Of a stretch of DNA of 64,000 nucleotides, positions 18,702-34,373 are shown in pieces. A program made the position numbers and the translations under genes. This DNA comes from Methylobacter sp. (lineage in GTDB: Bacteria > Pseudomonadota > Gammaproteobacteria > Methylococcales > Methylomonadaceae). Below the pieces are notes generated by a model that did not search any database, was not told where the DNA came from, and saw nothing but the letters and a program-made list of their open reading frames with translations. The stretch lies in assembly GCA_036741905.1 (NCBI GenBank), contig DAINRH010000001.1:34617-98616 (forward strand). The letters are read 5' to 3'. Numbering within the stretch: position 1 is the first letter of the stretch; each line of letters begins with the position of its first letter.

Positions 18702-18723
18702 AAGGTTCTCCAAAAAATAAAAG

Positions 18724-18776
18724 CGGGAAACCCAAAGCAACCCAATTGGGAAACGATTAGAGTTCCCCTGGTGGGT
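18724..18776 (-). repeat. intergenic hairpin element
   Basis: Apex CCCAATTGGG with imperfect GGGGAAC/GTTTCCCG arms. Upstream of 17481..18701. Confidence 0.55.
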
Positions 18777-18787
18777 AAAATTAATAA

Positions 18788-19072
18788 TTAAACAGACTTT
18801 TCCATGTAAAACATTTCAAAGACGTCATCAAATTCTTCAAACATCGAGTAAAAATTCTTCGGAGCATAAAGATCCTTGAATTCTTTCAACGCTGCTGTAG
18901 TGGACTTTCTTTTACGACTCAACCAAACTTTTTTAATACCGGGTTGCTCGCAAAATGCCGTTATTGCCTTTCTGATTTCCAATTGCTTGGTAAAGCCAGA
19001 GCCATTGTTATTCCAATAGCTGGCAGCATCTTTCGGAATCGTTTTCAGGTTGTGGACAATTACTTTTTTCAT
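18788..19072 (-). CDS. hypothetical protein
   Basis: ORF from MKKVIVHNLK, preceded by a hairpin element. Confidence 0.45.
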   Translation of the reverse strand: MKKVIVHNLKTIPKDAASYWNNNGSGFTKQLEIRKAITAFCEQPGIKKVWLSRKRKSTTAALKEFKDLYAPKNFYSMFEEFDDVFEMFYMEKSV

Positions 19073-19094
19073 CTTCGTAGTCTCTCTAGAAAAA

Positions 19095-19140
19095 CGGGAA
19101 ACCACATAAGCCCAATAGGGAATGTGATTCCCGGTTGGGT
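19095..19140 (-). repeat. intergenic hairpin element
   Basis: Arms GGGAATCACAT/ATGTGGTTTCCC, apex CCCT-ATT-GGGC. Upstream of 18788..19072. Confidence 0.6.
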
Positions 19141-19200
19141 AAAGAATTGAAAAAATGGCGAATCAAAAACCTGATTTGCCGGTTAAAGATTAAATGAACG

Positions 19201-19392
19201 TTAAATTTTGGAGCTTAGTGTTTTACGAAACATACCCGCAGCATCAGTATCAAGATGGTCGGCAAAAATATCATCGCCATCCACCAAAACATGAGTGCCA
19301 TCGTCATTGTTTGTGTAAGTAAAGCCCGCGTTGTATTCATCGCACAAATCAGCCAGTTTCTTCAAAAACTCGGATTGCTTTTCAGTCAGCAT
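19201..19392 (-). CDS. small acidic hypothetical protein (63 aa)
   Basis: ORF with AGGAG upstream. Co-oriented. Confidence 0.45.
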   Translation of the reverse strand: MLTEKQSEFLKKLADLCDEYNAGFTYTNNDDGTHVLVDGDDIFADHLDTDAAGMFRKTLSSKI

Positions 19393-19410
19393 AAATTCTC
19401 CTAAGAGATT

Positions 19411-19446
19411 GGGTTAAAAACCGGCTAATCGAAAGTGATTAGCCAG
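19411..19446 (-). repeat. simple hairpin variant of the intergenic element
   Basis: GGCTAATC/GATTAGCC stem followed by TTTTTAACCC. Upstream of 19201..19392. Confidence 0.45.
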
Positions 19447-19459
19447 AAGTGAATATCAA

Positions 19460-21364
19460 TCAAGCTGCCAACAAATTGCGGCTGATTCTGAATAGCTCAG
19501 AACGCAACTCGGACACGTTGTTTATACAGATCGATTGATCAAATAAATGACTCGTGTCGAAACAGATGCCCACGCCTACAAGCTCAATCCCGGACGATTC
19601 GCAGCGCTTGATAACGGCTTTTGCGGCACATTCATCGTCAGGCTGTCCATCGGTCAACACCATAATGACTTTCCGTTCTTCACGGGTAGCAATCACGGAT
19701 GATGCGGCATACCACAAAGCGGCATGAAGCGGTGTACCTCCATTGGTAACAGCCGAGAATGCAGAAGCATTAGGACGAACCTTTTGCCCATGTTTCAACA
19801 GCGGAACAACATCATCAGAATCACCAAACGGGAATCGCGTCACGGCAGGATTAACGCCTGAAATACCTTCAAGTGCCAATGCCAATGCCATAGAGGATTC
19901 GATGGCTAATTGAATCAGCCTACGATTTGAGTCCGTACTGTAAATTCCATTCATTGAGCCTGAACAATCGACCAGCAAATGAATGGCGGTATTAGGTGCC
20001 TGCTTATGACTCCTGCGTTCGAAAACACGAGCATCGCCTTGAATCAAGCGCGACAGTTTCCGTCCATCAATACGATTACCCGAGCGTTTATTCACGGAAC
20101 GATCACAACGACTGGATTGAACCAGACCTTGAAGCGAAGCGCGAATTTTGCCGGAGTCACTTAAAACCTTATTCATTAAGTCGTTCCCAACAGAAGAATT
20201 CCGGTGAGGATCCATAGCGATGGGCATGTAAATATCAGCATCGTAACTATTGCGAGATTGACTGCCTAAAAGCTCTTGAACAGCTTCAAATATATCTTGA
20301 GGCACATCATCTTCACTGGCTGATAAAACAGAAGCCAGGGCTTGCAGCGTGTGCTCGCTATCCTGATCTTGTGAATCATCGGCACCACTACCAGTAGAAT
20401 CAGCATGACTCTGTCCAGATTGAGAATCTTGATCTTGATGATCGGTATCAGCGTCGTTCTGAGAACCTGCGCCTTGACTTTGATCTTGATCGTCCTGTCC
20501 AGATGCATCCTGATCTTGAGCGGATTGACTGTCATCAGTATCTTGATCGGGTTGAGAATCATCACCTTGCGACTGATTATCCTGTGAAGAATTGCCGGAG
20601 CTTGGATTGGTTAAGTCATCATCCTGATCATTATTGCTTTGTCCAGATTGAGATTGTGACGACGAATCATCACTTCCTTGTCGCTGAGACTGGTTAGACT
20701 GCTGCTGTTGACGCGCTTTCTCCTGCTCAATTTCCTGCTCTTCTTCAATCATGCGCAAGATGCGGTCGGCAAGCCGAACACAGTCACGCGTTACTTGAAA
20801 CTCAGGGACTTCAGATAAAAGAGCCACAAGTCTTGTTACCGCACCCACTGGAAAAGTATCTTCTAGTAATGATTCTGCGGTGTCTGCATACGACGCTAGA
20901 GCAGTTTGGCCCAAGACATCGTTACGAAGACGAAACAACAAAAACTGCGACAAAACGTCAGCTGGATGAATCTGTTCATTTTGACCGATTATTTGAAATC
21001 CACCGGTTTGAACAAGATACTCAACCACCTTCTCAGTAGTCCGTTTAGTGCCTGGATAAGTATTCTGCATTAATTTCTCAATACGGATATCTTCCAGGAT
21101 GTTGACGATACTTCTCCGAATAGGACTGGTAGCTGCTTTACGAAAATCAGTAAATTCGGTAAACCGAACATGAGCTGCTTCATGTGCCAAATAGCCCCAT
21201 GCCACATCCTTGTAAGACGGATCTTCAAGGTTGTAAGCTGGCAAGTTAATCGTATTTCCATCTGTATACGCATCAGAACCGCCAACTTTAACTTTGACGC
21301 CAAATTTGTTACCCAGTGCAGCGGCAACGATAGGGAATGCGTTATTCAAACTTTGATTTTTCAT
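19460..21364 (-). CDS. CobT-like von Willebrand factor A domain protein with an HEXXH motif and an acidic Q/S/D-rich linker
   Basis: LAHEAAHVRF is an HEXXH motif. VDCSGSM...GGTPLHAAL...VLTDGQPDD is a vWA MIDAS-like motif. The low-complexity DQDSQSGQ tract spans about 20300-20700. Confidence 0.7.
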   Translation of the reverse strand: MKNQSLNNAFPIVAAALGNKFGVKVKVGGSDAYTDGNTINLPAYNLEDPSYKDVAWGYLAHEAAHVRFTEFTDFRKAATSPIRRSIVNILEDIRIEKLMQNTYPGTKRTTEKVVEYLVQTGGFQIIGQNEQIHPADVLSQFLLFRLRNDVLGQTALASYADTAESLLEDTFPVGAVTRLVALLSEVPEFQVTRDCVRLADRILRMIEEEQEIEQEKARQQQQSNQSQRQGSDDSSSQSQSGQSNNDQDDDLTNPSSGNSSQDNQSQGDDSQPDQDTDDSQSAQDQDASGQDDQDQSQGAGSQNDADTDHQDQDSQSGQSHADSTGSGADDSQDQDSEHTLQALASVLSASEDDVPQDIFEAVQELLGSQSRNSYDADIYMPIAMDPHRNSSVGNDLMNKVLSDSGKIRASLQGLVQSSRCDRSVNKRSGNRIDGRKLSRLIQGDARVFERRSHKQAPNTAIHLLVDCSGSMNGIYSTDSNRRLIQLAIESSMALALALEGISGVNPAVTRFPFGDSDDVVPLLKHGQKVRPNASAFSAVTNGGTPLHAALWYAASSVIATREERKVIMVLTDGQPDDECAAKAVIKRCESSGIELVGVGICFDTSHLFDQSICINNVSELRSELFRISRNLLAA

Positions 21365-21390
21365 GGTCTATTCCTAAAAATAAAAAAATA

Positions 21391-21434
21391 GGCAAACCAT
21401 GACCCAAAGGGGCTATGTTTGCCCCTAGTGGGTT
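21391..21434 (-). repeat. intergenic hairpin element
   Basis: Arms GGGGCAAACAT/ATGGTTTGCC, apex CCCC-TTT-GGGT. Upstream of 19460..21364. Confidence 0.6.
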
Positions 21435-21590
21435 AAAAACTAAAAATATCTGTCAAGGGAAATAATAATCCCCAATAGTTGATTCAGTGTTTTTCAAATC
21501 ATCAAAAAATTTTATAAGTTTTTTAGATAGCTCAAACAATCCAGGATCAGAATGCAATCGCGAACATTCAATAGCAGCTGGTAAAATGAA

Positions 21591-21640
21591 GGCGGGGCAA
21601 CAACGCAACCCATACGGATTGAATTGCAACCCGCCGGGTG
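21591..21640 (-). repeat. possible degenerate hairpin element just after the DUF3150-like gene stop
   Basis: Sense strand begins CACCC-GGC-GGG. GGCGGG/CCCGCC forms the outer stem. Confidence 0.35.
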
Positions 21641-21653
21641 AAAATAAATAAAA

Positions 21654-22958
21654 TCAGAACCAGAAGTCCGTAGATTCTGCGGTTTCTTCTGATTCGACTA
21701 GATCGTCGTCATCAATATCCTCCCGATCGTCTTCAGATGAAGATTCAACCGGCGTAACATCAGCGACTTGAGTAACCGCTTTAGCAGTGACTTGAACATC
21801 GTCTACAAGTGATCCAAGAACGTTTTCTACCAAACCAAGTAATGCATCGGATGGTACGAAAGGTTCGGCGGCTTCTAAAGGTTCCTGAGTAATAGTATCT
21901 TCTTTCGAAGAGTCGTATTTAGCCAGGAATGCATCAAAACCAGGAAGATCGTCAACCTCACTTTCAATTTGAACTTCAGGTTGTTCACCTAAGTCGTTAT
22001 CTTCAGTATCCGTTATAATCTCCAACACAGGCTGTTGAACGATATCTTCATCGGCAAGCGTTGAATCGGCATCTGGAATGATTTGATCATCCAAATCGTC
22101 TTCAAGCTCAATATCAGAATCGATAACAGTATCTGGTTGCAATAAACCACTACCATGCCGTTTGATCTTTTCCGGATCGGACAATAACAAACCAAGACGG
22201 AACAGGCTATGAAAGACAACGCCGTTATAAGGACCACTTTTGGGAAGCAAATCCAAAACACTATCGATTTCATCAACAACCGGCATACACCGATGATCGA
22301 GAAAACCAAGACTGTCGAGCTTGTCACGTATTCTTCGAAAACCATTCAATGCCCGAGCGGTCACTGAATCTTTACCAACAAATGACCTATCGATAATCTG
22401 ATTGGCATCTTGAGAAATTTCCCTAAAAAGTTGTTCACTCATAGTGAGTGCGCGACGTTCAAGAGATTCTTCTTGTTCAGGTTTAGATACACGAAAAACC
22501 ACATAATCAAAACGCAGCTTGGCAGCTACAGTTCCAACCGGTTCAATGGCTCTACGAATAGCATCGCCAAACTCAGCGTGACAGCGAATCCATTCTTCAG
22601 TATCGGCGGTGTAGCTTGCCAAAAACAGATCTCTTTCCTGATAAAACTTCTTGGAAAGCGCATCAAGCTCTTGGGTAATCCTTGAAATTTCAGTCCTTGG
22701 ATTAGCAAAACCACCAATAAAACGGGTACCTGATTCAAGACAAATCCGTTCCGCTTCTTTCTTAATACGGTTAAATTCCTTCAACTTGTCAGGATTAATA
22801 GTCTTCTTAGTGCCTAGTGATGCCAAATCTTCCGGTGGAAGTCTGGAACCATCGGCAAGCACAAGGTCTTCAGCCCGAAGTTTTTTCGAACTTGTCCAAA
22901 TACTGATGTCGAGTTTAACGACGTCAACTTGGTCAAGTATCATGTCTGCATTTTTCAT
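21654..22958 (-). CDS. DUF3150-like protein with an acidic C-terminal tail
   Basis: N-terminus VDVVKLDISIWTSSKKLRAEDL...LPPEDLASLGTKKTINPDKLKEFNRIKKEAERICLESGTRFIGGFANP. Recognised from memory of the DUF3150 family, which typically neighbours CobS/CobT-like genes. Confidence 0.55.
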   Translation of the reverse strand: MKNADMILDQVDVVKLDISIWTSSKKLRAEDLVLADGSRLPPEDLASLGTKKTINPDKLKEFNRIKKEAERICLESGTRFIGGFANPRTEISRITQELDALSKKFYQERDLFLASYTADTEEWIRCHAEFGDAIRRAIEPVGTVAAKLRFDYVVFRVSKPEQEESLERRALTMSEQLFREISQDANQIIDRSFVGKDSVTARALNGFRRIRDKLDSLGFLDHRCMPVVDEIDSVLDLLPKSGPYNGVVFHSLFRLGLLLSDPEKIKRHGSGLLQPDTVIDSDIELEDDLDDQIIPDADSTLADEDIVQQPVLEIITDTEDNDLGEQPEVQIESEVDDLPGFDAFLAKYDSSKEDTITQEPLEAAEPFVPSDALLGLVENVLGSLVDDVQVTAKAVTQVADVTPVESSSEDDREDIDDDDLVESEETAESTDFWF

Positions 22959-22985
22959 ATCTGCTTCTCCAAAAAAAGTAAAAGT

Positions 22986-23032
22986 GAAGAGACAGATTGC
23001 GTCCCATCAGGGCGAAAAATGCCCCTTCTGGG
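22986..23032 (-). repeat. intergenic hairpin element
   Basis: Sense strand: ACCC-AGA-AGGGGC...GCCC-TGAT-GGGAC, then a T-rich run and GGAG. Upstream of 21654..22958. Confidence 0.5.
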
Positions 23033-23051
23033 TAAGTAAAAAATTAAAAGT

Positions 23052-23795
23052 TCAGAAGTAAAAGTCTTCCTGTTCAGGTGCGATCATGGTTAGATCAACC
23101 CTTTTCACAAGCAAACCCATTTCTTCTGCGATTTGACGAATGGATTCCAGATCAGCGTCAAAAAATGACAACGCTTCGGTTTCCAGTTTGAGCTGGTCAC
23201 TAATTTCAACACCATCCTCATGAGACAAGGAAACAGTGATACCTTCGGGTGCGTTTTTCTTCAGCACCATAAGCAGCAACAAAGAAGCAACACCATTCTC
23301 TTTCGACAAACACCCCGCATCTGGTTTAACAAAATCACCATAATCATGAATGATCATTTCTGCCCACAAACAATCCGGATATGTACGCAGAATCGCGGTG
23401 GCATAACCGGTAGCCAGACCTCTTGAAAAATGATGCGCGGGACTATCCAACATGGGAGAAGGTATTTTAATTCGCCAATAAATATGCGGATCATTCTCTG
23501 TAGGCGGATGGTCTACACCAACGGGCTTTGAAGATATGGGAGGAACGTTGCTAATTTTTCCGTCATCACCAATCCAGGCTTGTCCAGAATGTTTATAGCC
23601 TTTTCGCTGTTTCGAGCGTATCAGTTTATGCATATCGTCGGGATGAACAATGCCTTTGGTGTTGGACGCCATCTTTGCCCCCGATTTCCCCCAGAATGTT
23701 GTGAAGGTGCCATCGTGATTATAACGAAGGGCCCACAACTTTGAGGAACCGTCGGGATTGTCAAACCGATAAAAATCAAATGGGTTAAGGTTCAT
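23052..23795 (-). CDS. WGR-domain-like protein
   Basis: SSKLWALRYNHDGTFTTFWGKSGAKMASNTKGI...RSKQRKGYKH resembles a WGR domain. The ATG at 23795 lies 2 nt after the upstream stop. Confidence 0.45.
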   Translation of the reverse strand: MNLNPFDFYRFDNPDGSSKLWALRYNHDGTFTTFWGKSGAKMASNTKGIVHPDDMHKLIRSKQRKGYKHSGQAWIGDDGKISNVPPISSKPVGVDHPPTENDPHIYWRIKIPSPMLDSPAHHFSRGLATGYATAILRTYPDCLWAEMIIHDYGDFVKPDAGCLSKENGVASLLLLMVLKKNAPEGITVSLSHEDGVEISDQLKLETEALSFFDADLESIRQIAEEMGLLVKRVDLTMIAPEQEDFYF

Positions 23796-23797
23796 TG

Positions 23798-24769
23798 CTA
23801 TTCTCCCCAAGCATCACCGAAAACGTCTTTGGCAATGCGATGGATAGCTTCACGTTGAGTCGGCTCTGCACGTAATGTGAGCGCACGGTCCAACGAATAC
23901 GCCAGCGCATTAGGAGCGCGTTTGTAAGCAATCATCAAGTTCGTCCAGCGCACCAGAGTCCGTGTGGACATCGTAACGCTTAATTCACCTGAGCTGTCAG
24001 AACCACCGACAAAAAGCCGACGGATTTCATTAGCGACCTCAATCATTTTATCCGTCAAATTTCCCATAACCGCATCAACAGAAATACCCATGCTAACAAG
24101 CGCCGCTTGCAGGATGGACTTCTCAATAGAAGCTTCAGGATAACCGACTTCCATTAATCTGAACCGATCCAAAAATGCAAGGTTTTGCTGCATGATGCCT
24201 TGATAAAGACCGCTTTGATCACCTTGACCTGCGGAGTTGCCGGTAGCGATCAGACGGAACTTAGGATGAGGTTTAATCACTTCACCGCCGTTTTGAGGAA
24301 TGACCAAAGGTTGCCCTTCGATAATATCGTTCAAACCAGCGAGTTCAGAGGGATCCATCAAGTCGATTTCATTCAAAATCAACAGATGACCATCGCGAAC
24401 AGCTTGAGCAAGCGGACCCTGCATAAAAGACATGGAACCATTGACAAGCATAAATTGACCAATAAGATCGTTCAGCTCAAGACGACCATGACAGGTGACT
24501 TGATTAACGGGCCAATTCAAGCGAGAAGCAACCTGGCAGATCAGCGAGGTTTTGCCTGAACCGGTAGGGCCAGTCAAATACAGCGCATCGCCGAGAGGAT
24601 TGGCAATAAATGCCAAGACATCGCGTAGATGTTCATTTCTGAACACATACTCTTTATTGGCTGGAATTAAAGGATGCAGAGCATCTTTAAATCCTTCAAC
24701 AGTCATTGCGGCAGGAGCCACAATGCCAAAAGTTGAACCAATCGCGAATTTTTTAGTTTGAGTAGTCAT
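23798..24769 (-). CDS. CobS/MoxR-like AAA+ ATPase (AAA_5)
   Basis: Walker A LTGPTGSGKTS, Walker B LLILNEIDL, then FRLIATGNS. Confidence 0.75.
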   Translation of the reverse strand: MTTQTKKFAIGSTFGIVAPAAMTVEGFKDALHPLIPANKEYVFRNEHLRDVLAFIANPLGDALYLTGPTGSGKTSLICQVASRLNWPVNQVTCHGRLELNDLIGQFMLVNGSMSFMQGPLAQAVRDGHLLILNEIDLMDPSELAGLNDIIEGQPLVIPQNGGEVIKPHPKFRLIATGNSAGQGDQSGLYQGIMQQNLAFLDRFRLMEVGYPEASIEKSILQAALVSMGISVDAVMGNLTDKMIEVANEIRRLFVGGSDSSGELSVTMSTRTLVRWTNLMIAYKRAPNALAYSLDRALTLRAEPTQREAIHRIAKDVFGDAWGE

Positions 24770-24789
24770 AGTGTTTTCTCAGATTAAAC

Positions 24790-24842
24790 CAGAGAAAACA
24801 CACAGTTCCCAACCGGGAAAAATGAATTTTCCCCAGTGGGTT
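24790..24842 (-). repeat. intergenic hairpin element
   Basis: Sense strand: ACCC-ACT-GGGGAAAA-TTCA-TTTTTCCC-GGTT-GGGAAC. Upstream of 23798..24769. Confidence 0.55.
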
Positions 24843-25108
24843 AAAAAATAAATCAAATAAAATCACGGCTAAGCCGTTTCATAAGTATCACGCCGGAGCG
24901 CTTCATTGATTCCTTATTTAAAGTGCTGAACTGGCACTGCTCTTGAGTCCTCTTAGAGAACTACAAAAAATCGTCTTTCCACAATACTTAAACCAAGCAC
25001 TCTGGAAAGACGGTAAGGGCATTATGCCGGTTACCGTCAAAATAGTAAGATCAAAAGACGCCCAAATTACGCGTCTTTTGACTGGATAAAATTAACTCAG
25101 TTCGTAAG
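24840..25108 (-). repeat. ~270-bp structured intergenic module, copy B (upstream of the CobS-like AAA gene)
   Basis: Aligns end to end with copy A with few substitutions. It even includes the ...AACTGAGTTAA gene-end string. Confidence 0.85.
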
Positions 25109-25133
25109 TAAGAAATTCTATTTAAGAAAGGAA

Positions 25134-25496
25134 TTAGTATTCCGAAGGCAGCAACAGAACGTCGTCGAACAAATAAAAGCTCCAGGTCCCCTCAATCAAA
25201 GTTGTGGATGGCACATGCTTTGATTTCAGTTCTTTACTATCGCCATCTTTGACAACGATTATGCAAGATCCATTTTGAGACTCCACCGTAATAAACAAAA
25301 ACGTCTGATCCTTTAGCATTGGGAAGTACTCGGTCGCAATAACATCCAACAGCCAATAGCTTTCGGTTTGCTCCGCAAAATACTTGACGCCATCGGTGTA
25401 TGTCATCGCAGGCATCAACGGGTGTCTATACCAGTGTTCCGTGCCAATAAACTGCATCAGCTCAGAGTCCAATGCTTCTTTTCGTAGTGTTTCCAT
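25134..25496 (-). CDS. hypothetical protein (possibly DUF6876-like)
   Basis: 120-aa ORF with FIGTEHWYRHPLMPAMTYTDGVKYFAEQTESYWLLDVI. The family assignment is from memory only. Confidence 0.45.
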   Translation of the reverse strand: METLRKEALDSELMQFIGTEHWYRHPLMPAMTYTDGVKYFAEQTESYWLLDVIATEYFPMLKDQTFLFITVESQNGSCIIVVKDGDSKELKSKHVPSTTLIEGTWSFYLFDDVLLLPSEY

Positions 25497-25522
25497 GTGA
25501 ATCTCCAGGTAAAAGTAAAAGA

Positions 25523-25571
25523 CCGCAAGAAACGCAACATCCGCAAAGGATGAGTGTCTTTGCGGAAGGTT
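25523..25571 (-). repeat. intergenic hairpin element
   Basis: Arms CCGCAAAGACAC.../...GCGTTTCTTGCGG. Upstream of 25134..25496. Confidence 0.5.
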
Positions 25572-25663
25572 AGAAATAAAGAATGATCAGGCCGTAGTCA
25601 TCACAACCCTATGTACTTGTTGAATACCGGCTGTGATGTAACAGTTCAGCATTCCGGGCCTGT

Positions 25664-26014
25664 TTAGCAGATAGCTAATGCCTGTTTCGCAAAATCATGA
25701 GCAGAGTCAATTTCACCTGCAAGCAAGGCCTGGCACGCATAAAACGCAAATTCCTTTCGCTTTATAGCTTTAACGGAGGCATCGGGTTCTGGGAACGCCG
25801 AGACTTCTTCAGCACTAAAACGCAAGGTTTCGCCGTTCACTTCTTCGAAATCATCGAATAGCAAAGGCATATTTTGGGTGTTATCCCAAATAGTGCTTTC
25901 ATCAAATGCAGTCTGGGCCAATTGCTTGGCGGATTCGGCATCTGTCGCGGTTACACCCACAACAACGCGGTGGGTGTAGTCAATTTCGTATGTGACAGCG
26001 AATTTTGTAGTCAT
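25664..26014 (-). CDS. hypothetical protein
   Basis: 116-aa ORF preceded by a hairpin element and AGAGGA. Confidence 0.5.
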   Translation of the reverse strand: MTTKFAVTYEIDYTHRVVVGVTATDAESAKQLAQTAFDESTIWDNTQNMPLLFDDFEEVNGETLRFSAEEVSAFPEPDASVKAIKRKEFAFYACQALLAGEIDSAHDFAKQALAIC

Positions 26015-26041
26015 GGTTATGTCCTCTAAAGGTTTAAAAAA

Positions 26042-26083
26042 GAGGCAACTATTCCCAATGAGGACGTTGCCCCTTATGGGGTT
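26042..26083 (-). repeat. intergenic hairpin element
   Basis: Arms GGGGCAACGTCC/...AGTTGCCTC. Overlaps the TAA stop of 26082..26423. Upstream of 25664..26014. Confidence 0.5.
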
Positions 26084-26423
26084 AGTGAGGTTTTCTATTT
26101 TGGATGGATTCGAATTTGCCTAAAACAGCATCACGAATGTCATTAGGATCCAATCCAGATACCTTGCAGCAGTTGATGAAACTGAAGGGATTTAGATCGC
26201 CGATGTTCGTCAGCCAGTTGTATATTTCAACAACCGTTTTCATTGAACATCTATTGTCAAACAGATTGTGTAACGAATCTTCCAGAAGACAATCGCAGAT
26301 ATGCGCAATTTCTGTATCAGTCCAGGGCGGTACTTCTTCAGGCAAGGTCTCTGTGCTTTGTAGCCACAGCCATTGATCATCGAACAAGTCGAGATTTAGG
26401 CTACGATCAAAACCTCGTCGCAT
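26082..26423 (-). CDS. hypothetical protein
   Basis: 113-aa ORF preceded by a hairpin element and GGAGG. Confidence 0.5.
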   Translation of the reverse strand: MRRGFDRSLNLDLFDDQWLWLQSTETLPEEVPPWTDTEIAHICDCLLEDSLHNLFDNRCSMKTVVEIYNWLTNIGDLNPFSFINCCKVSGLDPNDIRDAVLGKFESIQNRKPH

Positions 26424-26439
26424 GGTGCCTCCAAAAATT

Positions 26440-26485
26440 CGGGAAACATATGCGCCCAGTCGGGGTCAGTGTTCCCCGATGGGTT
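26440..26485 (-). repeat. intergenic hairpin element
   Basis: Arms GGGGAACACTGA/...ATGTTTCCCG, apex CCCC-GACT-GGGC. Upstream of 26082..26423. Confidence 0.55.
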
Positions 26486-26514
26486 AAGGTTAATGATGAG
26501 TTAAGGTTTTAGAA

Positions 26515-27516
26515 TCAAAACCAAAAATCACCGTCTGTAGAAGACATAATTTCGTCCATTGAGAACGGAACTTGTGCCTTTTCTTCGCCTTTAAGCGTAA
26601 AACGTGTTCGCTCAGTCGATTTCTTGCGGAAGGTTTCCAAAAAAGCGGGATCAACATCGGGATGCAGGGCCATTAATGCAGCCTTGTAGTCGATATTACC
26701 TTGCGTAAGATAGCGATTGATTCTAAGACCACTGCTTTCGGCTTGAGCATAATCACCCATTAATTTAAGGAGATTTTTCTCGATATCAGCCTGCTGTTTT
26801 TCATAAGGTTTAATCTTGGACGCGAAGTCCTTAATTATTTCTTCAGCACTGTGATAATTTGCTGCCAGCACGTTCCATTGATCAATTTCCAGTCCAGACG
26901 GAATGAAGATGTCACGATCAATATCAGTCGCTGGTGGCTGATTTTTCAACAAATAATCAGCAAACTTTCGACCCTCGATAATCAAACTATCAATGACCAA
27001 ATCATTCTTTTTAATCAAAAAGTCTAAAGGCGGCTCCTTATCGTTCAAATAAAACGACAAATAACCTTCATTAGTTCCAGCGACTACAATCTGCTGCTGA
27101 ACTTGATAGTAATAACGCCTATAAACTTTCGATTTAGTGCCATTTTGCTGCGCATCTCGAAAATTAACTTCCATTGGAACTTTAAGTTCTACAGGAATTC
27201 CATCATCGTTCAACCCATCAAAAGAAGCCCTTAGAAAAGGATGATCTTCTGATTCTGCACATAACGGTAAAACTATCGTGTTATGACGATTTTCAAAAGA
27301 CCTTCGAGCTGTTGCCTCAAGTCTAATTCCTCTTTGGACAAAGGGATTACTGTCCAGATTATCTGGAAGAGTAATTCCCTTCTTCTCGTTGTATAAACGG
27401 TAAATTGTCTTTAAAGGACATTGTCCAAGAACAATAATTGCTTCTGATGCAGAAACACCCAAATTGCGCCATTGGTGCCATTCGGGCGTGCGCTGTTGAA
27501 GATTAACGACTTTCAT
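26515..27516 (-). CDS. YqaJ-type (lambda Exo-like) recombination exonuclease
   Basis: MKVVNLQQRTPEWHQWRNLGVSASEAIIVLG is a YqaJ N-terminal signature. GGGAG lies 6 nt upstream of the ATG at 27516. Sits next to bet and ssb. Confidence 0.75.
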   Translation of the reverse strand: MKVVNLQQRTPEWHQWRNLGVSASEAIIVLGQCPLKTIYRLYNEKKGITLPDNLDSNPFVQRGIRLEATARRSFENRHNTIVLPLCAESEDHPFLRASFDGLNDDGIPVELKVPMEVNFRDAQQNGTKSKVYRRYYYQVQQQIVVAGTNEGYLSFYLNDKEPPLDFLIKKNDLVIDSLIIEGRKFADYLLKNQPPATDIDRDIFIPSGLEIDQWNVLAANYHSAEEIIKDFASKIKPYEKQQADIEKNLLKLMGDYAQAESSGLRINRYLTQGNIDYKAALMALHPDVDPAFLETFRKKSTERTRFTLKGEEKAQVPFSMDEIMSSTDGDFWF

Positions 27517-27554
27517 AAAAGACTCCCAGTAAATAATGGGCGTCATGAAAAAAA

Positions 27555-27586
27555 CCAAGTGGGCTTTCAGTGACGCCCAACGGGTG
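27555..27586 (-). repeat. short hairpin variant
   Basis: Sense strand: CACCC-GTT-GGGCGTCACTGAAAGCCCACTTGG followed by T7. Upstream of 26515..27516. Confidence 0.45.
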
Positions 27587-27597
27587 AAAGTAATTAG

Positions 27598-27732
27598 TTA
27601 ACCAAGAACGGCTCTAACAATATCAATTACATTTCCTTCTGGAAACGCAGCTCTTCCTAATAATGAAACCAGAAAAACTGATGAAAATAAAAAAGCTGAA
27701 ATTAGGCCAAAAATTAATTTAAGAATACTCAT
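27598..27732 (-). CDS. 44-aa hydrophobic peptide (single TM), below the ORF-track cutoff
   Basis: Translates to MSILKLIFGLISAFLFSSVFLVSLLGRAAFPEGNVIDIVRAVLG*. AAGGA lies 6 nt upstream. It has its own hairpin element at 27754-27799. Confidence 0.4.
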   Translation of the reverse strand: MSILKLIFGLISAFLFSSVFLVSLLGRAAFPEGNVIDIVRAVLG

Positions 27733-27753
27733 GACAATCCTTTAAATAATGAA

Positions 27754-27799
27754 GGGCATCATGAAGTCCCGAGGGGCATACATGATGCCCTGTAGGGTT
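27754..27799 (-). repeat. intergenic hairpin element
   Basis: Perfect 10-bp arms GGGCATCATG/CATGATGCCC, apex CCCC-TCG-GGAC, 5' ACCC-TAC-AGGG. Upstream of the 44-aa ORF. Confidence 0.65.
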
Positions 27800-27808
27800 A
27801 AAAGTAGA

Positions 27809-28426
27809 TTAAGCCAAATTAGCTTTTGCTTCAGCTAAAGGTGACTTCTTGTTGTTGACGATACTACTAGCTTGCTCTGGAGCTTTACCTTCAGAAGAAT
27901 TCTCTTTAGGAGGGTTCTCTTTAGGATTTGGCACAGAAGCAGCTTGCGTATTAACAGGATCTTTCTTTTGCGGAAGATTAATCAAAGTGGCTTCATAAAG
28001 TGATTTAGCCTTATTAATTTCTTCATTCACAAAGAGCAAGTTGAATCCTGAGAAGTTTTCGCCGGCATAATCAAGTGCTGCTTGAAATGCACCACCGGCT
28101 TTCTGAGCACGATCAATAAGTCTTGGTGCCATTTTTGTAGCTTCAACACTTGGAGCCTGATCGGTCGAATCTGACATATCAATGACAGTAGACTGACCTT
28201 CGATAATGCGTTCAGCTTCGTCCTGGTCATAAATACCGACAAAACCAAATGCAATACGAGAACATTGAATCATAGCCTTATGCCGTAATAACCGCTTAGT
28301 ATGAGTCTGCCAAGGGCCATTGATAGTGTAAGGAGCGCCGCCGTTTTTAGGTGTACCAGTAAAAGGTGGACGGTAAGTTTCATCAAGAAATTCTTTAATG
28401 CGAATAGGATGAGTTCTACCTTTACG
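27809..28426 (-). CDS. bet: Bet (Red-beta family) single-strand annealing recombinase, exon 2
   Basis: In-frame translation RKGRTHPIRIKEFLDE...GPWQTHTKRLLRHKAMIQCSRIAFGFVGIYDQDEAERI parallels lambda Bet RKDRNHPICVTEWMDE...GPWQSHPKRMLRHKAMIQCARLAFGFAGIYDKDEAERI. Confidence 0.85.
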   Translation of the reverse strand, partial: RKGRTHPIRIKEFLDETYRPPFTGTPKNGGAPYTINGPWQTHTKRLLRHKAMIQCSRIAFGFVGIYDQDEAERIIEGQSTVIDMSDSTDQAPSVEATKMAPRLIDRAQKAGGAFQAALDYAGENFSGFNLLFVNEEINKAKSLYEATLINLPQKKDPVNTQAASVPNPKENPPKENSSEGKAPEQASSIVNNKKSPLAEAKANLA

Positions 28427-30851
28427 ATCGGGTAAGGAAAAGATATTGCTATCTTTCCCTCCCCTAAGAACCGTGCGTGAAAGTTTCCCTTCACACGGCT
28501 CAAGCCTTTCAAAGATCGGTTTCGCGATCCGGCTTTCTGACTTTCAAATAACGGCTATGAACTTTCCTGTGACAGTTGGGATGGAGTATCACGAGATTGG
28601 AGTTTATATCCTTTCCGCCTTTCGCTTTTTCTACAATGTGATGAATGTTAAAGTTCTCCACGTTGTCAATTCGCGTTTTGCATACTGGACATATACCTTT
28701 CTGTTGTACCCATAATTTTGCGAGTTTAGTCCTTCTTACCGATTCTTTAGTCATTTTGACTTCAAGTCTCTTTTCAAAATATTGTTCATATTTTGGGTCG
28801 TATGGATTAGCATCCGCTTGAATCTTGATGTGTCGTTCGATAGGAACCGCTGACATTACTGCCAACCTTGTCGAATGCTCACCTTGATTTTCCCCCGAGA
28901 AGACCCAGTTCCGGTTGTCTACTGTCTTAAAGTATTTATTTTTAATCCAGAGCTTCCCTTTATTGGGGTGTCTTCTTTCTGCCCATTTCCAGGTTTTAAT
29001 CCAAACTTGGTGATCTACATAGCTAAAAGTTTCCTTTGCCACCGTACCTTTATGGTAATTCGCCCATCCTGTTATTACAGGGTTCAATAGGTTGATAACA
29101 TTTTCAGTTTTGGCGTTTTTGTTACTATCCAAAATTACTTTTACCTTTCCCAGAACATTTTTAATACTGTCTTTGGAGGGCTTAATGAGCAGTTTGGAGT
29201 CGTATTTTCTGAAATTCCAACCTAAGAAGTCAAAACCATCGTTTATGTGAGTGATTTTGGTTTTCTCGGGTGACAATTCCAGACCTCGTTCCTTGAGGAA
29301 GCTTTCAACCAGCGGTTTAACTTCATCTTCCAGTTGTTCTTTCGAGTCTCCTGTTATGATGAAGTCGTCCGCATATCTGATGAAATTTACTTTCGGGTTT
29401 TTAGATTTCCTTTCTCCATTTTCCCGATATTGCAGGATTTTGAAGTTTTGGTTTAGCACTTTTTCAAGGCCGTCTAAAGCCAGGTTTGCCAGCGTAGGAG
29501 AAATAATTCCCCCTTGTGGAGTGCCTGTTTCCGTATCAGTGAATTTTCCATTGTAAATAACACCTGCTTTTAGCCATTCCCTTAATATCTTTCGATCTAG
29601 GGGAATGTTTTCCAATAGCCATTCGTGAGAGATATGGTCAAAACACCCTTTGATATCGGCTTCTAAGACCCATTCTGCATTCAGCCTTTTGGCTAAGACT
29701 TGGAAGCCTCGTTCTCTGGCATCTGCTGTGGCTCTTTCTGGTCGAAAACCGTAAGAATTTGAATCTGCTGTAGTTTCTGACACGGGTTCTAGGGCTAACA
29801 AGTGTAGTGCTTGCATAGCTCTGTCCTTCATAGTCGGGATTCCCAGTTTTCTTTTCTTACCGTCTTTTTTAGGTATTTCAACTCTTCTTAAAGGTGAAGA
29901 TTTATATCCCCTTCTTTTCAGACTATCTATAGCTTTGGCTTTGGTTTCTGGTGTGTTCCAAGTTTCCCCATCTACACCAGCAGTTCTTTTGCCTTTGTTT
30001 TCAGTCACTCGTTTTACTGCGATTGCTTTTGCAGCAAACGAGCGCGTTAGTATGTGCTGGAGTTTTTTGACTTTTCCCCAGCGTCCTTCCGCAGTAGCCT
30101 TCACAATACGCGCTTGTAGTCTCTTAACATTTTTGTGGCATTCGACCCATTCGACATCGTGCCAATGCTCAATCATGTCAGAGGATGCCCCGGCATCATC
30201 AATTTTCATTGTTTTTGCTGTCATCAGCTTTTCCTCTTTAAAGATTAATTTCAAGCTTTCTCATGAAGAAAGACCATGCGAGAAGTCTGCCCAGTTTCCT
30301 GTGGAATGATGTCGCATTGCTACTCAACTCCTATGTCCATGCCATTACAGCTTGACCATTCGCTTTCTCTCGCTTTCTTATACCCCCTAAGTCAATAGAT
30401 TACCTTACGGTTCTCCTGCCATTGCTGGCGACTCGTGGGGCTTACCTTGTTCCATTTAAGTAATAATACAGATGTTTTAGGCTCTATCTCTCTCCCGATG
30501 GATGCGTTGTTCCTGTGATTGATATTTACACTCAATCAACCGATCCATATACCTTTTGGTTCAAGCTTATCAGCATCTTTAGCTTGTCATGCGTAACGAG
30601 ATTTAAAATGATAGTTCACATATGTTGGCCATGACATCCTTAGCCTAGAGCTTATACCCCTTAATGCTAGGAGATTTAGGTTATCCTCGCGGAATCACCT
30701 AGACCTTGCGGTCAAGCTTCATTGTCTTGGCAGCTTCACACCTCTCCGTTACCAGAAACGCATGTGCCAATAGGCTCGGAGTAAGGAAATACTCGGTTTC
30801 TTTTAGGGATGCCCTAATTGAAACAATTACTTAAACAACTTCAAGTCACAC
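28427..30851 (-). mobile_element. group II intron (2,425 nt) inserted in bet, in sense orientation
   Basis: The 5' end is GTGTG (30851-30847). Domain V GAGCCGTGTGAAGGGAAACTTTCACGCACGGTTC lies at 28501-28468. Domain VI is a hairpin with a bulged A, and the 3' end is ...CCCGAT. Intron TTACGCAT (30596-30589) and GTAAAT (30529-30524) are complementary to the last 13 exon nt ATGCGTAATTTAC (EBS2/EBS1-IBS2/IBS1). Confidence 0.9.
28509..30254 (-). CDS. group II intron-encoded reverse transcriptase/maturase with a C-terminal HNH endonuclease
   Basis: RT motifs include RYADDFIITG. A maturase X region follows. The HNH is CPVCKTRIDNVENFNIHHIVEKAKGGKDINSNLVILHPNCHRKVH. The start may be an internal Met (30224 or 30209). 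Confidence 0.9.
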   Translation of the reverse strand: MKLIFKEEKLMTAKTMKIDDAGASSDMIEHWHDVEWVECHKNVKRLQARIVKATAEGRWGKVKKLQHILTRSFAAKAIAVKRVTENKGKRTAGVDGETWNTPETKAKAIDSLKRRGYKSSPLRRVEIPKKDGKKRKLGIPTMKDRAMQALHLLALEPVSETTADSNSYGFRPERATADARERGFQVLAKRLNAEWVLEADIKGCFDHISHEWLLENIPLDRKILREWLKAGVIYNGKFTDTETGTPQGGIISPTLANLALDGLEKVLNQNFKILQYRENGERKSKNPKVNFIRYADDFIITGDSKEQLEDEVKPLVESFLKERGLELSPEKTKITHINDGFDFLGWNFRKYDSKLLIKPSKDSIKNVLGKVKVILDSNKNAKTENVINLLNPVITGWANYHKGTVAKETFSYVDHQVWIKTWKWAERRHPNKGKLWIKNKYFKTVDNRNWVFSGENQGEHSTRLAVMSAVPIERHIKIQADANPYDPKYEQYFEKRLEVKMTKESVRRTKLAKLWVQQKGICPVCKTRIDNVENFNIHHIVEKAKGGKDINSNLVILHPNCHRKVHSRYLKVRKPDRETDL

Positions 30852-31223
30852 GTAAATTACGCATTCAATCCAAGTTGAGCAAAGTTTGCCACCTTCAGGT
30901 GTAATGATTTCATCGGCGTAAACAAATTCAAGCCCATCCATATCGGGATGCTGATTAATGATACGAGACCATCCATCAACTCCGACAACAGGAACGATAC
31001 CGTTCTGTTTATCGGGATACGCATAGATTTCCTTGGTAAACGGATTTAAACCGTACTGATCAGCAACGATCAATAAAGCAGTCATCTGTTCATCGCTAAC
31101 AACGCCGTCTTTAACCTTAAAAGCCGTAGCCTTCAAAGTGTCGATCAATTTTTGTTCGTCCGAAAAACTAAATTTGTCAGCGAATTTTTTGAACAGTGAA
31201 TCTTTTTTACTAGTGCTACTCAT
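30852..31223 (-). CDS. bet: Bet (Red-beta family) recombinase, exon 1
   Basis: LIVADQYGLNPFTKEIYAYPDKQNGIVPVVGVDGWSRIINQHPDMDG parallels lambda Bet LIVANQYGLNPWTKEIYAFPDKQNGIVPVVGVDGWSRIIN. GGAG lies upstream of the ATG at 31223. The exon ends ...CVIY immediately before GTGTG. Confidence 0.85.
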
Positions 31224-31249
31224 GGTGTACTCCAAAAATAAATTAAGAA

Positions 31250-31290
31250 GGGACACCAAAAGTCCCAAAGGACAAATGGTGTCCCAAGGG
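31250..31290 (-). repeat. intergenic hairpin element
   Basis: Arms GGGACACCA/TGGTGTCCC, apex GTCC-TTTG-GGAC. Upstream of bet exon 1. Confidence 0.65.
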
Positions 31291-31369
31291 AAAGTAAAAA
31301 TCAGCTAAGCCTAATAAAACGAAACGGCGCTAAACTTTAAAAAAGCTGATAAATTAAATAACCTGACCA

Positions 31370-31849
31370 TCAAAATGGTATGTCGTCGTCAAAATCATCG
31401 TAAGCAGGTCCATCATAAGCAGGAGGTGCGGAATGAGAATTAGATTGTGACGAAGTAGGCCCGGTGGAAGATGGCTGCGAAGGTGAAGATCCGGTTGAAG
31501 ATGATCCTGAAGAATCGTTCGGTTTTCCGCCTAACATTTTCATTTCGGTAGCATGGATTTCAGTCGAGTAACGATCCTGGCCGGATTGATCCTGCCATTT
31601 ACGTGTACGAATAGGACCTTCAAACAGAGTTAAAGAGCCTTTTTTAAGATAGTCCCGCGCAATTTCAGCAAGCTTTCCAAAAAGAATAACACGATGCCAT
31701 TCAGTTTTTTCTTTACGTTCACCTGAAACTTTATCTTTCCAGGATTCTGTAGTTGCAAGACTGATAGTGGCTACAGCTTTACCTTCTTGAGTAAAACGGA
31801 TTTCTGGGTCTGAGCCTAAACGGCCGATAACTTGAGCTTTGTTGTACAT
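31370..31849 (-). CDS. ssb: single-stranded DNA-binding protein
   Basis: [39 protein letters not shown]...[16 protein letters not shown] is an OB fold. There is a G/S/P-rich linker and an acidic tail DDFDDDIPF. Confidence 0.95.
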
Positions 31850-31881
31850 GGTAAATCTCCTTATTAGACAAAAAGAAAAAA

Positions 31882-31921
31882 GGAGACCATTGCCCTGGGG
31901 GAAATGATCTCCCAGAGGGTT
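31882..31921 (-). repeat. intergenic hairpin element
   Basis: Arms GGAGATCAT/ATGGTCTCC, apex CCCC-CA-GGGC. Upstream of ssb. Confidence 0.6.
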
Positions 31922-32057
31922 AATTCGACGTCAATGCTTCGATTTGGGCGTGACGATTGTTGATTAAAGCAGTGTATGTATCCAAATATTGCTTGGCAGC
32001 AGACAAAGCGGTTTCCATGCTGAACATCAGTACAGCAAAAATCAGTAACTTTTTCAT
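31920..32057 (-). CDS. 45-aa peptide with a signal-like N-terminus, first ORF of the leftward array
   Basis: Translates to [51 protein letters not shown] lies 7 nt upstream. Below the ORF-track cutoff. The 92-aa track ORF 31864..32142 is in another frame and looks spurious. Confidence 0.35.
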
Positions 32058-32079
32058 AGTGTATTTCCTTGGGTAAAAC

Positions 32080-32124
32080 CAGGGAAAACACATGAGCCCA
32101 GCAGGGAGTGTTTCCCTGGAGGGT
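32080..32124 (-). repeat. intergenic hairpin element
   Basis: Arms CAGGGAAACAC/GTGTTTTCCCTG, apex CCCT-GCT-GGGC. Upstream of the 45-aa ORF. Confidence 0.65.
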
Positions 32125-32245
32125 AAAAAAAATAAATATCACGGCTAAGCCGCTTCATAAGTATCACGCCGGAGCGCTTCATTGATTCCTTATTTAAAGT
32201 GCTGAACTGGCACTGTTCTTGAATCCTCTTAGAGAACTACAAAAA
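32123..32245 (-). repeat. partial (~120 bp) copy C of the 270-bp module, at the head of the array next to rep
   Basis: Shares ATCACGGCTAAGCCG.TTCATAAGTATCACGCCGGAGCGCTTCATTGATTCCTTATTTAAAGTGCTGAACTGGCACTG.TCTTGA.TCCTCTTAGAGAACTACAAAAA. It lacks the two distal terminator-like hairpins. Confidence 0.8.
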
Positions 32246-32392
32246 TTAAAGATACTTTGTCACAAAAAAAGCAATTAATCAGTTCGAAAGAGCACGAAAA
32301 AACGCGCCTTTCGGTGCAATGCAAAAAAAGATCAAAAGAGGCCGAAAAATCGCGTCTTTCACCCCGATGCAATTGTTTATAAGCGCATATTA

Positions 32393-33526
32393 TTGGAGAC
32401 CGTTAAACATCTACCCTTAACGGCCATGTCATCAAAAAATATGCAACAAGAAAAAAAGTTCGAGCCACCCGCAGTGGAAGCTTTTGATTGTAAGCAAATC
32501 GACTTGTTTCAATCCTTTCTATGCAATCACGAAGAACAGCGCGGAAAGCTGTCAAATGCCTTTCCGCTATGGGATTGCCTTCCCCGATATTCAATGTCGC
32601 GGCGAGCCGCACAGAAAATGCTAAAAGCCGGAACGTTTCCGAAGCTACTAAATATTGCGTGCCAATATTTAGGCCGAAAGATTAAGATTGAGATTCAGCC
32701 AGCCCGGCTTAATGATAATGGCGTGGTCACGGAATACTACCCTGGGACCAGCGAAGAGCTCGTTGAAGATGCCCTTCGAAAAATTGCGACATTGCAGAAC
32801 CATGGTTACTACGATGAAAGCCGCCCCAGACATGGCGTGTCATTTACGATCTACCAGTTACGCAAAGAATTGAAGAAACAAGGTCACACCCGCTCCTACC
32901 AGGAAGTTGTTCTGAGCTTAAGAATCTTGGCACGCAGCTCAATCGAAATCAGCTCCGAGGATAAAAAAAATAAGATTTACGACGTCTGCACCTATTTCAG
33001 CCGGCTGTCGACTGTATCAAGGGTCGGCTTGGAAGAAGATCCTGACGCGAAGTGGTATGTTGAATTCCATCCCCTGATTACCAAGGCGATCAGCGCCATT
33101 GATTACCGGCAGTTTAACTACGAACTAATGATGAGCCATAAAACGCAACTGGCTCGCTGGCTGCATAAATATCTCGTTGCCAAATTTATCAACGCATCGG
33201 TTGGTCAAAAGTTTGAAATGCGGTTTAGCACCATTAAACGTGATAGTGGATTGCTGGAGGGTTATGGGCGAAATCGCGCCGGGATGGAGGCAGTAAGAAA
33301 TGCGCTTAATGAATTAGCGAATAATGGAATATTGCAACCGATTCTAGAAAAAGAAGGCAAAGACGAAAAAGTTACGCCATTTATGGAAAACAAAATTATC
33401 GGCTCAAAGAGTGAGGTCGAAGACATCGTTTATACCGTCTTCCCCTCCGCCCAATTTTCAAGCGAGTCGAAAAGAGCAAATGCAAATGTTAATCGCCTGA
33501 AAGAAAAATCATCCGCAGACCGGTAG
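32393..33526 (+). CDS. plasmid-type replication initiator (RepA/TrfA-like; call rests largely on context)
   Basis: 377-aa ORF transcribed divergently from the array. Its stop lies inside the first of 7 iterons. TTG start at 32393, alternative ATG at 32426. No strong motif recognised by eye. Confidence 0.55.
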   Translation: METVKHLPLTAMSSKNMQQEKKFEPPAVEAFDCKQIDLFQSFLCNHEEQRGKLSNAFPLWDCLPRYSMSRRAAQKMLKAGTFPKLLNIACQYLGRKIKIEIQPARLNDNGVVTEYYPGTSEELVEDALRKIATLQNHGYYDESRPRHGVSFTIYQLRKELKKQGHTRSYQEVVLSLRILARSSIEISSEDKKNKIYDVCTYFSRLSTVSRVGLEEDPDAKWYVEFHPLITKAISAIDYRQFNYELMMSHKTQLARWLHKYLVAKFINASVGQKFEMRFSTIKRDSGLLEGYGRNRAGMEAVRNALNELANNGILQPILEKEGKDEKVTPFMENKIIGSKSEVEDIVYTVFPSAQFSSESKRANANVNRLKEKSSADR

Positions 33527-33807
33527 GTACAGGTGGCGGCTCTGCCCGATTTTCGGTAGGTATAGCAGGCGCAGATAGGTAGGAATAGCTGGCGGGGGGG
33601 AGGGCAGGGATAAAAATGAGCTATTAAGGGCGTTTTGATCGGTAGGTAGAGGTGGCGGGTGGTTCAATTTTCGGTAGGTATAACTGGCGGGGTATCAATT
33701 TTTCGGTAGGTATAGCTGGCGGGGCAAGAAAATGATGGGGTGAAAAAGCGAAATCTGTGGATAACTTTAGGCTGTTCGGTAGGTATAGGTGGCGGGGCAA
33801 TTTTGTA
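33521..33807. promoter_or_regulatory. iteron array (7 direct copies of ~TCGGTAGGTATAGCTGGCGGGG), candidate oriV
   Basis: Copies start at about 33521, 33553, 33574, 33639, 33671, 33703 and 33786, all in the same orientation. An A+T-rich tract with TTATCC repeats follows at about 33815-33890. Confidence 0.8.
33766..33774 (-). promoter_or_regulatory. consensus DnaA box
   Basis: The plus strand reads TGTGGATAA, the reverse complement of TTATCCACA. It lies between iterons 6 and 7. Confidence 0.6.
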
Positions 33808-33959
33808 AGGCATTGATTTGTTGAAATTAAATAATGTTTTTTTTGCCCTTATCCTTTTATCCTTATTACTATCCTTTTTTTAACCGTCCGGCATCCGTCT
33901 TCGTCACCCAAAAAACACATCGATACAAAACAACTTCATGATCACTAAAAGGACAAAAA

Positions 33960-34373
33960 ATGAGCAAAACGAAAAATAGAGATTCTTACCAGCCTGATGG
34001 CCTAAATCGACTTTTTTGGCTTGCAGCAAAAAATATAGCCGTACCTGATCCTGATTTTGGCGCAAAAGACAATGTGCTTTTTGCAATGTCTTTGTATTCC
34101 GGTGTCAAGCTAAAGGACATCAGAATGAGCGATATGGTCGACATGGTCATTCATGCGTTGGCTGAGTATTTCCAGCACAAAGGTATCGCTGTAAACGATC
34201 TTCATGATTTGCTTAATCCGCTTCGAACCGATTACGCGGTGCTAACAAACCAGAAGTGGGATCAGAACCAAGCTTCTCAAAAAATCATTGAAAGCTGCAT
34301 GACTCGATTAGCCTTAGCGCAGATGCGATCTAAATGTGACTTAATGCCGGACAACGACCTAGGTTGTTGCTAA
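33960..34373 (+). CDS. hypothetical protein (137 aa)
   Basis: ORF downstream of the oriV region with AAAGGA upstream. No family recognised. Confidence 0.45.
   Translation: MSKTKNRDSYQPDGLNRLFWLAAKNIAVPDPDFGAKDNVLFAMSLYSGVKLKDIRMSDMVDMVIHALAEYFQHKGIAVNDLHDLLNPLRTDYAVLTNQKWDQNQASQKIIESCMTRLALAQMRSKCDLMPDNDLGCC

Follow-up and report, generated by a model that had tools for sequence, protein, structure and literature searches.

A complete group II intron splits the bet recombinase gene of a Methylobacter replication-recombination array

The stretch of DNA analysed here, 64,000 nucleotides of a Methylobacter sp. assembly (GCA_036741905.1, contig DAINRH010000001.1, positions 34,617 to 98,616; hereafter the window), contains a leftward array of ssb, bet and a YqaJ/lambda-exonuclease-family gene, in which the recombinase gene bet, coding for a single-strand annealing protein of the lambda Bet type, is interrupted by a group II intron carrying a reverse transcriptase (RT). 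On the minus strand, the first exon runs from an ATG at 31223 to the codons ...TGC GTA ATT TAC ending at 30852, and its frame closes two codons inside the intron (TAC GTG TGA), which begins GTGTGAC at 30851. The intron ends in ...CCTTACCCGAT at 28427, and exon 2 resumes with CGT AAA GGT at 28426. Both exons are in phase, and their 372 + 618 nt encode a 329-aa protein that reads ...IECVIY/RKGRTHPI... across the junction (marked here and below by a slash). An earlier reading of the same DNA, made without database searches (the sequence-only reading), had placed the end of exon 1 before GTGTG and the start of exon 2 after CCCGAT, with the product CVIY/RKGRTHPI collinear with Bet; its observation is confirmed to single-base resolution. 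The joined-exon protein aligns with no gap at the junction to Stx2a_WGPS8 Bet (CRIYRKDRNHPI), from a lambda-like phage, and the same gap-free collinearity is seen with Bet of Pasteurella, Acinetobacter and Alcaligenes phages. The gene adjoins the YqaJ/lambda-exonuclease-family gene, a pairing in keeping with a Bet-family recombinase. Annotators should treat the two pieces of bet, together with the 'retron-type RT' lying between, as a single gene predicted to be spliced.

The intervening sequence is an intact group II ribozyme. Its termini fit the consensus for the class (5' GUGYG, 3' AY), with GUGUG at 30851 and ...GAU at 28427, and both ends are recognized by Rfam models in the correct order on the minus strand: group-II-D1D4-7 (RF02012) scores 108.4 bits (E 7e-22) at 30796..30649, and the domain V/VI model RF00029 scores 68.9 bits (cut-off 40) at 28503..28427. 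The second match contains the 34-nt domain V and the domain VI hairpin with a bulged A, both lying where the sequence-only reading had put them. The 5' part was folded with RNAalifold using the first ~625 nt of 12 related introns (the window intron alongside two to three close relatives, plus eight introns at ~65% identity). The consensus for domains I–III comprises 144 pairs, and 96% of the sequence-pair cells hold standard pairs, against 36–45% in slid controls in which the 3' partners were moved by 1–3 columns. Compensatory (kept double) changes occur in 90 of the 144 pairs compared with 23–35 in the controls, a contrast that is somewhat flattering given that one and the same alignment served to derive the structure and to score it. 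Domains I–IV can thus be modelled, with covariation across the 12 introns. An unpaired AAGC at intron positions 116–119 (30736..30733), kept in the alignment, corresponds to the AARC bulge of the lambda-epsilon' region, the 4-nt bulge that Merk et al. use as the criterion for group IIB (PMC12350094). Similarity and this bulge criterion together support classifying the intron as a complete group IIB ribozyme, bearing an open reading frame (ORF), of a chloroplast-like (CL)/IIB1-like lineage.

The intron-encoded protein has a frame that stays open over 571 codons without frameshifts. Pfam recovers RVT_N, RVT_1 (with YADD), GIIM and HNH, in agreement with the RT, X and HNH domains named in the sequence-only reading, and TIGR04416 matches at 387.6 bits (cut-off 300). 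The best relative with a solved structure is the T.el4h RT (PDB 6me0_C, E 3.5e-193), compared with E 6e-40 for LtrA of the mitochondrial-like (ML) lineage and ~1e-33 to 1e-38 for IIC RTs. T.el4h and EcI5 are CL/IIB1 introns (PMC2882425); by similarity scores, the intron protein is closest to T.el4h and groups with the CL lineage. The ratio of non-synonymous to synonymous differences per site (pN/pS) is 0.15 against a sister intron in another genus of the family (genome G036), and the protein is therefore under purifying selection.

Target recognition can be followed base by base. The earlier reading had assigned two intron loops as exon-binding sites (EBS2 and EBS1) complementary to the contiguous intron-binding sites (IBS2 and IBS1) AUGCGUA-AUUUAC of the 5' exon, and all 13 nt are matched (Table 1); the sequence UUACGCAU at intron 256–263 is complementary to the distal 5' exon, and EBS2 pairs at 7–8 of 8 positions; the pairs of both loops are all Watson-Crick. 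Domain I is ~92% conserved between the window intron and relatives of 79–86% identity, and the differences are concentrated in the EBS1 and EBS2 loops. The complement between EBS1 and the 5' exon measures 5–7 bp in all 12 introns and ends exactly at −1 in nine of them. In G036 the loop UUGGUC pairs with its own exon GACCAA or GACCAG, and in genome G122 the loop UUCUUCA pairs with UGAAGAA; the EBS1 loop GUCGUC of another relative (L007) needs two G-U pairs to match its exon GAUGAU, and the EBS loops of the eight distant introns likewise pair with their own 5' exons. Because the loops covary with the 5' exon of each of the 12 introns, the EBS1/EBS2 assignment is supported. In the 4.6-Mb genome the exact 13-nt IBS string occurs once.

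An allele with an empty site is found in the same genus. We searched 346 genomes of the same family (Methylomonadaceae) for bet homologues and found them in 17. Contig G210:C19 encodes an uninterrupted Bet with 95.7% protein identity across all 329 residues, and this intact protein scores 95 bits against the TIGR01913 equivalog (cut-off 76.95), compared with 65.9 bits for exon 1 alone. At the insertion site the G210 DNA matches the window's joined exons base for base (ATTGAATGCGTAATTTAC/CGTAAAGGTAGA). Positions 18215–28426 of the window match it at 96.2% identity and the match resumes at the next base with 30852–34018 at 95.8%, so that a colinearity of 13 kb breaks exactly between 28426 and 28427 and between 30851 and 30852. 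The window locus is the G210 locus plus exactly 2425 nt, without duplication or deletion. These exact breaks, the RF02012 E-value and the single occurrence of the IBS string in the genome put the observation well outside what chance would give. A further 18 intron-less bet alleles of the family read C.IY/RK at the junction, which is the uninterrupted form predicted from the split gene. Two outcomes that would have spoken against the sequence-only reading, a domain I–IV fold that resists modelling and a differing junction in intron-less homologues, are both contradicted. Both exons are undamaged and pN/pS for bet is 0.06 between the intron-plus and the G210 allele; this fits ongoing use of the gene, although most of the divergence may predate the insertion. 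A blastn search of a phage collection returned only uninterrupted bet genes, its other matches being unrelated RT genes. One of these is in Pseudomonas phage phi3, for which Merk et al. locate the intron outside the prophage (PMC12350094).

Table 1. Features of the bet locus, with coordinates in the window.
Feature	Coordinates	Strand	Description	Evidence
ssb, upstream neighbour in the leftward array	31370..31849	-		PF00436, E 8.7e-36; phrog_44
bet exon 1	30852..31223	-	124 codons, 372 nt	PF03837 (RecT) profile positions 5-81, E 1.3e-14; TIGR01913 bet_lambda positions 12-107
IBS2 AUGCGUA (30864..30858) and IBS1 AUUUAC (30857..30852)	30852..30864	-	perfect complement of EBS2/EBS1 loops	
Group IIB (CL/IIB1-like) intron	28427..30851	-	2425 nt, GUGUG...CCCGAU	RF02012, RF00029; exact insertion relative to G210:C19
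Domain I	30446..30845 (intron 7-406)	-	contains IIB-type AAGC bulge	RNAalifold consensus
EBS2 UACGCAU	30589..30595 (intron 257-263)	-	hypervariable loop between sister introns	
EBS1 GUAAAU	30524..30529 (intron 323-328)	-	terminal loop of hairpin 30538..30516; pairs 6/6	
Candidate EBS3 G362	30490	-	would pair with C+1 of exon 2	predicted
Domain II	30382..30441 (intron 411-470)	-		consensus fold, compensatory changes
Domain III	30279..30372 (intron 480-573)	-		consensus fold, compensatory changes
Domain IVa (DIVa) hairpin, conserved	30273..30259	-	just ahead of Shine-Dalgarno and ORF start codon	
Intron-encoded protein in domain IV	28509..30224	-	571 aa; RT (YADD), maturase X, HNH	Shine-Dalgarno upstream
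Domain V	28468..28501	-	34 nt, AGC triad, GAAA tetraloop	RF00029 alignment
Domain VI	28427..28465	-	A28433 bulged as branch point, 7 nt from 3' end; terminal AU	RF00029 and direct reading
bet exon 2	27809..28426	-	205 codons + stop, 618 nt	PF03837 profile positions 122-191; colinear with G210
YqaJ/lambda-exonuclease-family gene, downstream partner of bet	26515..27558	-		PF09588, TIGR03033, phrog_434

The nearest relatives of the intron, by protein or DNA, are 87%, 86%, 84% and 79% identical and come from Methylobacter metagenome-assembled genomes (MAGs) and from others in the family, which points to a Methylobacter-like host. The closest (87%; L006, Methylobacter sp. MAG contig JAQTLI010000293.1) is 5'-truncated at about intron position 331, and a relative in genome G023 keeps only the first 624 nt. 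Ahead of the truncated copy, L006:1-125 holds about four tandem ~30-nt repeats (GTGTTCAG..TTGA..CCAGAAT). The closest full-length relative in a genome contig, L007 (79%), occupies an unrelated site outside bet and, given its two G-U pairs in EBS1, is uninformative on the home site. G036 is an exception among the relatives. It carries two 99.9%-identical sister introns with 86% nucleotide identity to the window intron (loci L128 on G036:C2 and L127 on G036:C1, at 5001–7424 in each). One copy is chromosomal, inside a 544-aa ORF in which no Pfam family was found, and the other interrupts the orthologous bet on a 349-kb second contig at a different site (GIYDQ/DEAER, about residue 196). The G036 EBS loops fit better at the chromosomal site (6/6 and 6/6) than at the bet site (7 bp with one G-U, and 4/6). 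In exon 2 of the window bet this second site is unoccupied, and its sequence from −15 to +18 is the same as at the occupied G036 site; conversely, the first site is empty in the G036 bet, which differs there at 5 of 13 IBS positions. As a separate observation, at least five further group II introns, belonging to different lineages, are present in the genome of the window, seen as domain V/VI matches above the Rfam cut-off on contigs C287, C203, C25, C182 and C10 (L315–L319). Several of these matches are at contig ends, and such introns probably contribute to the fragmentation of the assembly.

Taken together, the locus very probably holds a mobile intron of the CL/IIB1 lineage, with its own RT, maturase and HNH domains, in the bet gene of an ssb-bet-exo module of a Methylobacter-like methanotroph. 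From established group II biology, the leftward array would be transcribed through the intron to give a bet precursor, on which translation of exon 1 would end two codons past the exon boundary. The intron protein would be translated from its own Shine-Dalgarno site in domain IV, bind the RNA and aid its folding, and branching at A28433 followed by exon ligation would yield the mRNA for the 329-aa Bet. On this scheme Bet would be made only if the intron splices. The excised lariat-protein particle could reverse-splice into DNA bearing AUGCGUA-AUUUAC/C, which matches EBS1–3, and the HNH domain would then cut the bottom strand so that target-primed reverse transcription copies the intron in. The favoured history is a fairly recent insertion into bet in the sense orientation.

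Several points weigh against such a mobile, splicing intron. Splicing and mobility are themselves inferred, and at only 87% identity the nearest relative does not point to a donor. Bet-coding flanks were found in none of the 190 intron-protein relatives checked (the 80 closest in genome contigs, 30 viral and 80 metagenome sequences), G036 with its sister intron in bet being the one exception. At the first bet site, no other intron is present among the 346 family genomes, all 19 other bet alleles being intron-less there, and the 80 viral bet relatives each span residue 124 in a single high-scoring segment pair, none with an ORF resembling the intron protein. G362, tentatively assigned as EBS3, is the best-covarying column relative to the first 3'-exon base and forms a Watson-Crick pair in 9 of 12 introns. 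The sequence-only reading had called the locus the cognate homing site; the perfect EBS pairing stands, whereas no second occupied copy turned up in any search, and it is the pairing that suggests a cognate site. With splicing deduced from sequence, it is also conceivable that the intron is dead or impaired in splicing, leaving bet inactivated in a decaying element that makes no functional Bet. The sublineage is present as a single copy in the assembly, and truncated relatives such as those in L006 and G023 exist, as that account would have it. Against this, all catalytic motifs and the four protein domains are intact over 571 codons without stops or frameshifts, the two bet exons are undamaged and keep the reading phase, their pN/pS relative to the intron-less allele being 0.06, and the EBS-IBS pairing that splicing requires is perfect. 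We therefore regard a dead intron as unlikely.

The history of the insertion has its own alternatives. Group II introns can be lost precisely through recombination with cDNA, and an intron that was ancestral to this bet lineage, with precise losses in G210 and in the other relatives, would leave a site identical to the joined exons, as is seen in G210. Such a history would, however, require many precise losses, given that all 19 other family alleles and the 80 viral relatives are without an intron at the site; a single gain is far more parsimonious, the closest relatives of the intron occupy unrelated sites, and we consider ancestral presence very unlikely. A still more remote prospect, to which we give almost no weight, is that the junctions are an assembly chimera in which an intron-derived repeat was mis-joined into the bet contig. 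The assembly is indeed fragmented (413 contigs), with several other group II introns at contig ends, but a mis-join would yield neither the exact GUGUG and AU ends at both junctions, nor the preserved exon phase, nor a flanking exon complementary to the intron's own EBS loops. A fairly recent insertion remains the favoured history. It is improbable, in our estimate, that one CL/IIB1 sublineage, retargeted through changes in its EBS loops, repeatedly and preferentially lands in bet in these methanotroph mobile elements, with splicing gating a Red-type recombinase. This idea draws on the two 86%-identical sister introns at two different sites of orthologous bet genes in two genera. If it were true, splicing could gate expression of the Red-type recombinase and the two insertions would not be unrelated accidents.

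Introns in genes of conjugative elements are classical, as with Ll.LtrB in the ltrB relaxase gene of pRS01. There, likewise, a mobile intron sits in a mobile-element gene that needs splicing for its expression, and travels from host to host with the element; the two differ in class and protein lineage (IIA/ML for Ll.LtrB) and in host gene. In sequence, the T.el4h/TeI4 family and EcI5 are by far the best match, with the same architecture of RT, X and DNA-binding/endonuclease (D/En) HNH domains (PDB 6me0; PMC2882425). The IIB features of the RNA are shared as well, namely the AAGC bulge and the placing of EBS1 in a terminal and of EBS2 in an internal loop, with G362 as a tentative EBS3, and sister copies in the T. 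elongatus families diverge mainly in the EBS loops, as here (PMC2882425). In contrast to those introns, the present one is hosted by a gammaproteobacterial methanotroph, its sublineage occurs as a single copy per genome and has not proliferated, and it lies in a conserved recombination gene instead of intergenic regions, insertion sequence (IS) elements or other introns.

Group II introns were long thought to be absent from phage and prophage genes but have now been described in 20 curated phage genomes and ~9,000 IMG/VR contigs (Merk, Jones & Eddy, NAR 2025, PMC12350094). The curated host genes include UvrX, a DarB-like helicase, ssb, tail, RNA polymerase, TerL and DNA polymerase; bet/RecT is not among the host genes of these 20 genomes (PMC12350094). 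Those introns and the present one alike interrupt a conserved DNA-metabolism gene in a mobile or viral-type module, and they are validated by the same types of evidence, namely Rfam matches to D1–D4 and D5/D6, an intron-less homologue, EBS/IBS pairing and an RT ORF. The present element differs in having no virion genes among the ORFs scanned in the 64 kb, and resembles a plasmid or an ICE (integrative and conjugative element). The remark in the sequence-only reading that bacterial group II introns usually avoid conserved ORFs needs qualifying: the intron does interrupt the conserved bet, but this is less unusual than was implied, with the ltrB relaxase and phage UvrX, DNA polymerase, TerL and RNA polymerase genes already published as hosts (PMC12350094). 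The present intron is well supported as a further case of a known phenomenon and not as a new kind of element, and the general picture of group II intron biology is unchanged by it. Its interest lies in bet as a host gene, which joins the few genes of phage or plasmid type known as hosts of group II introns, and in the two-site pattern in orthologous bet genes. A full-length mobile intron, a 96% identical empty-site allele and a sister intron at a second bet site together form a ready system for studying retrohoming specificity and natural retargeting.

Beyond the exonuclease gene, the leftward array continues with DUF6876, a CbbQ/MoxR-type AAA protein, DUF3150, a CobT-like VWA protein, a GHKL ATPase and a Toprim primase, and several complete genomes have the orthologous module on a second replicon. 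A scan of ~25 neighbouring ORFs against PHROGs and Pfam found no capsid, tail, terminase or integrase genes, those identified in the window being ssb, bet, exo, primase, CobS/CobT-like, DUF3150 and DUF6876 genes and a BREX operon, and a prophage reading of the host element was dropped on that ground. The element looks like a plasmid/ICE- or phage-like replication-recombination block, and may not be a phage. To the right of the ssb-bet-exo array lies a type 1 BREX (bacteriophage exclusion) operon. The colinearity with G210:C19 (96% from 18215) stops at 34018, just short of this operon, and, compared with the replication-recombination array, the BREX block may represent variable, inserted DNA. 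Directly upstream of bet (31240–31300) is a GGGAC...GTCCC hairpin, which is conserved ahead of the G036 bet and matches a repeated intergenic hairpin of the leftward array.

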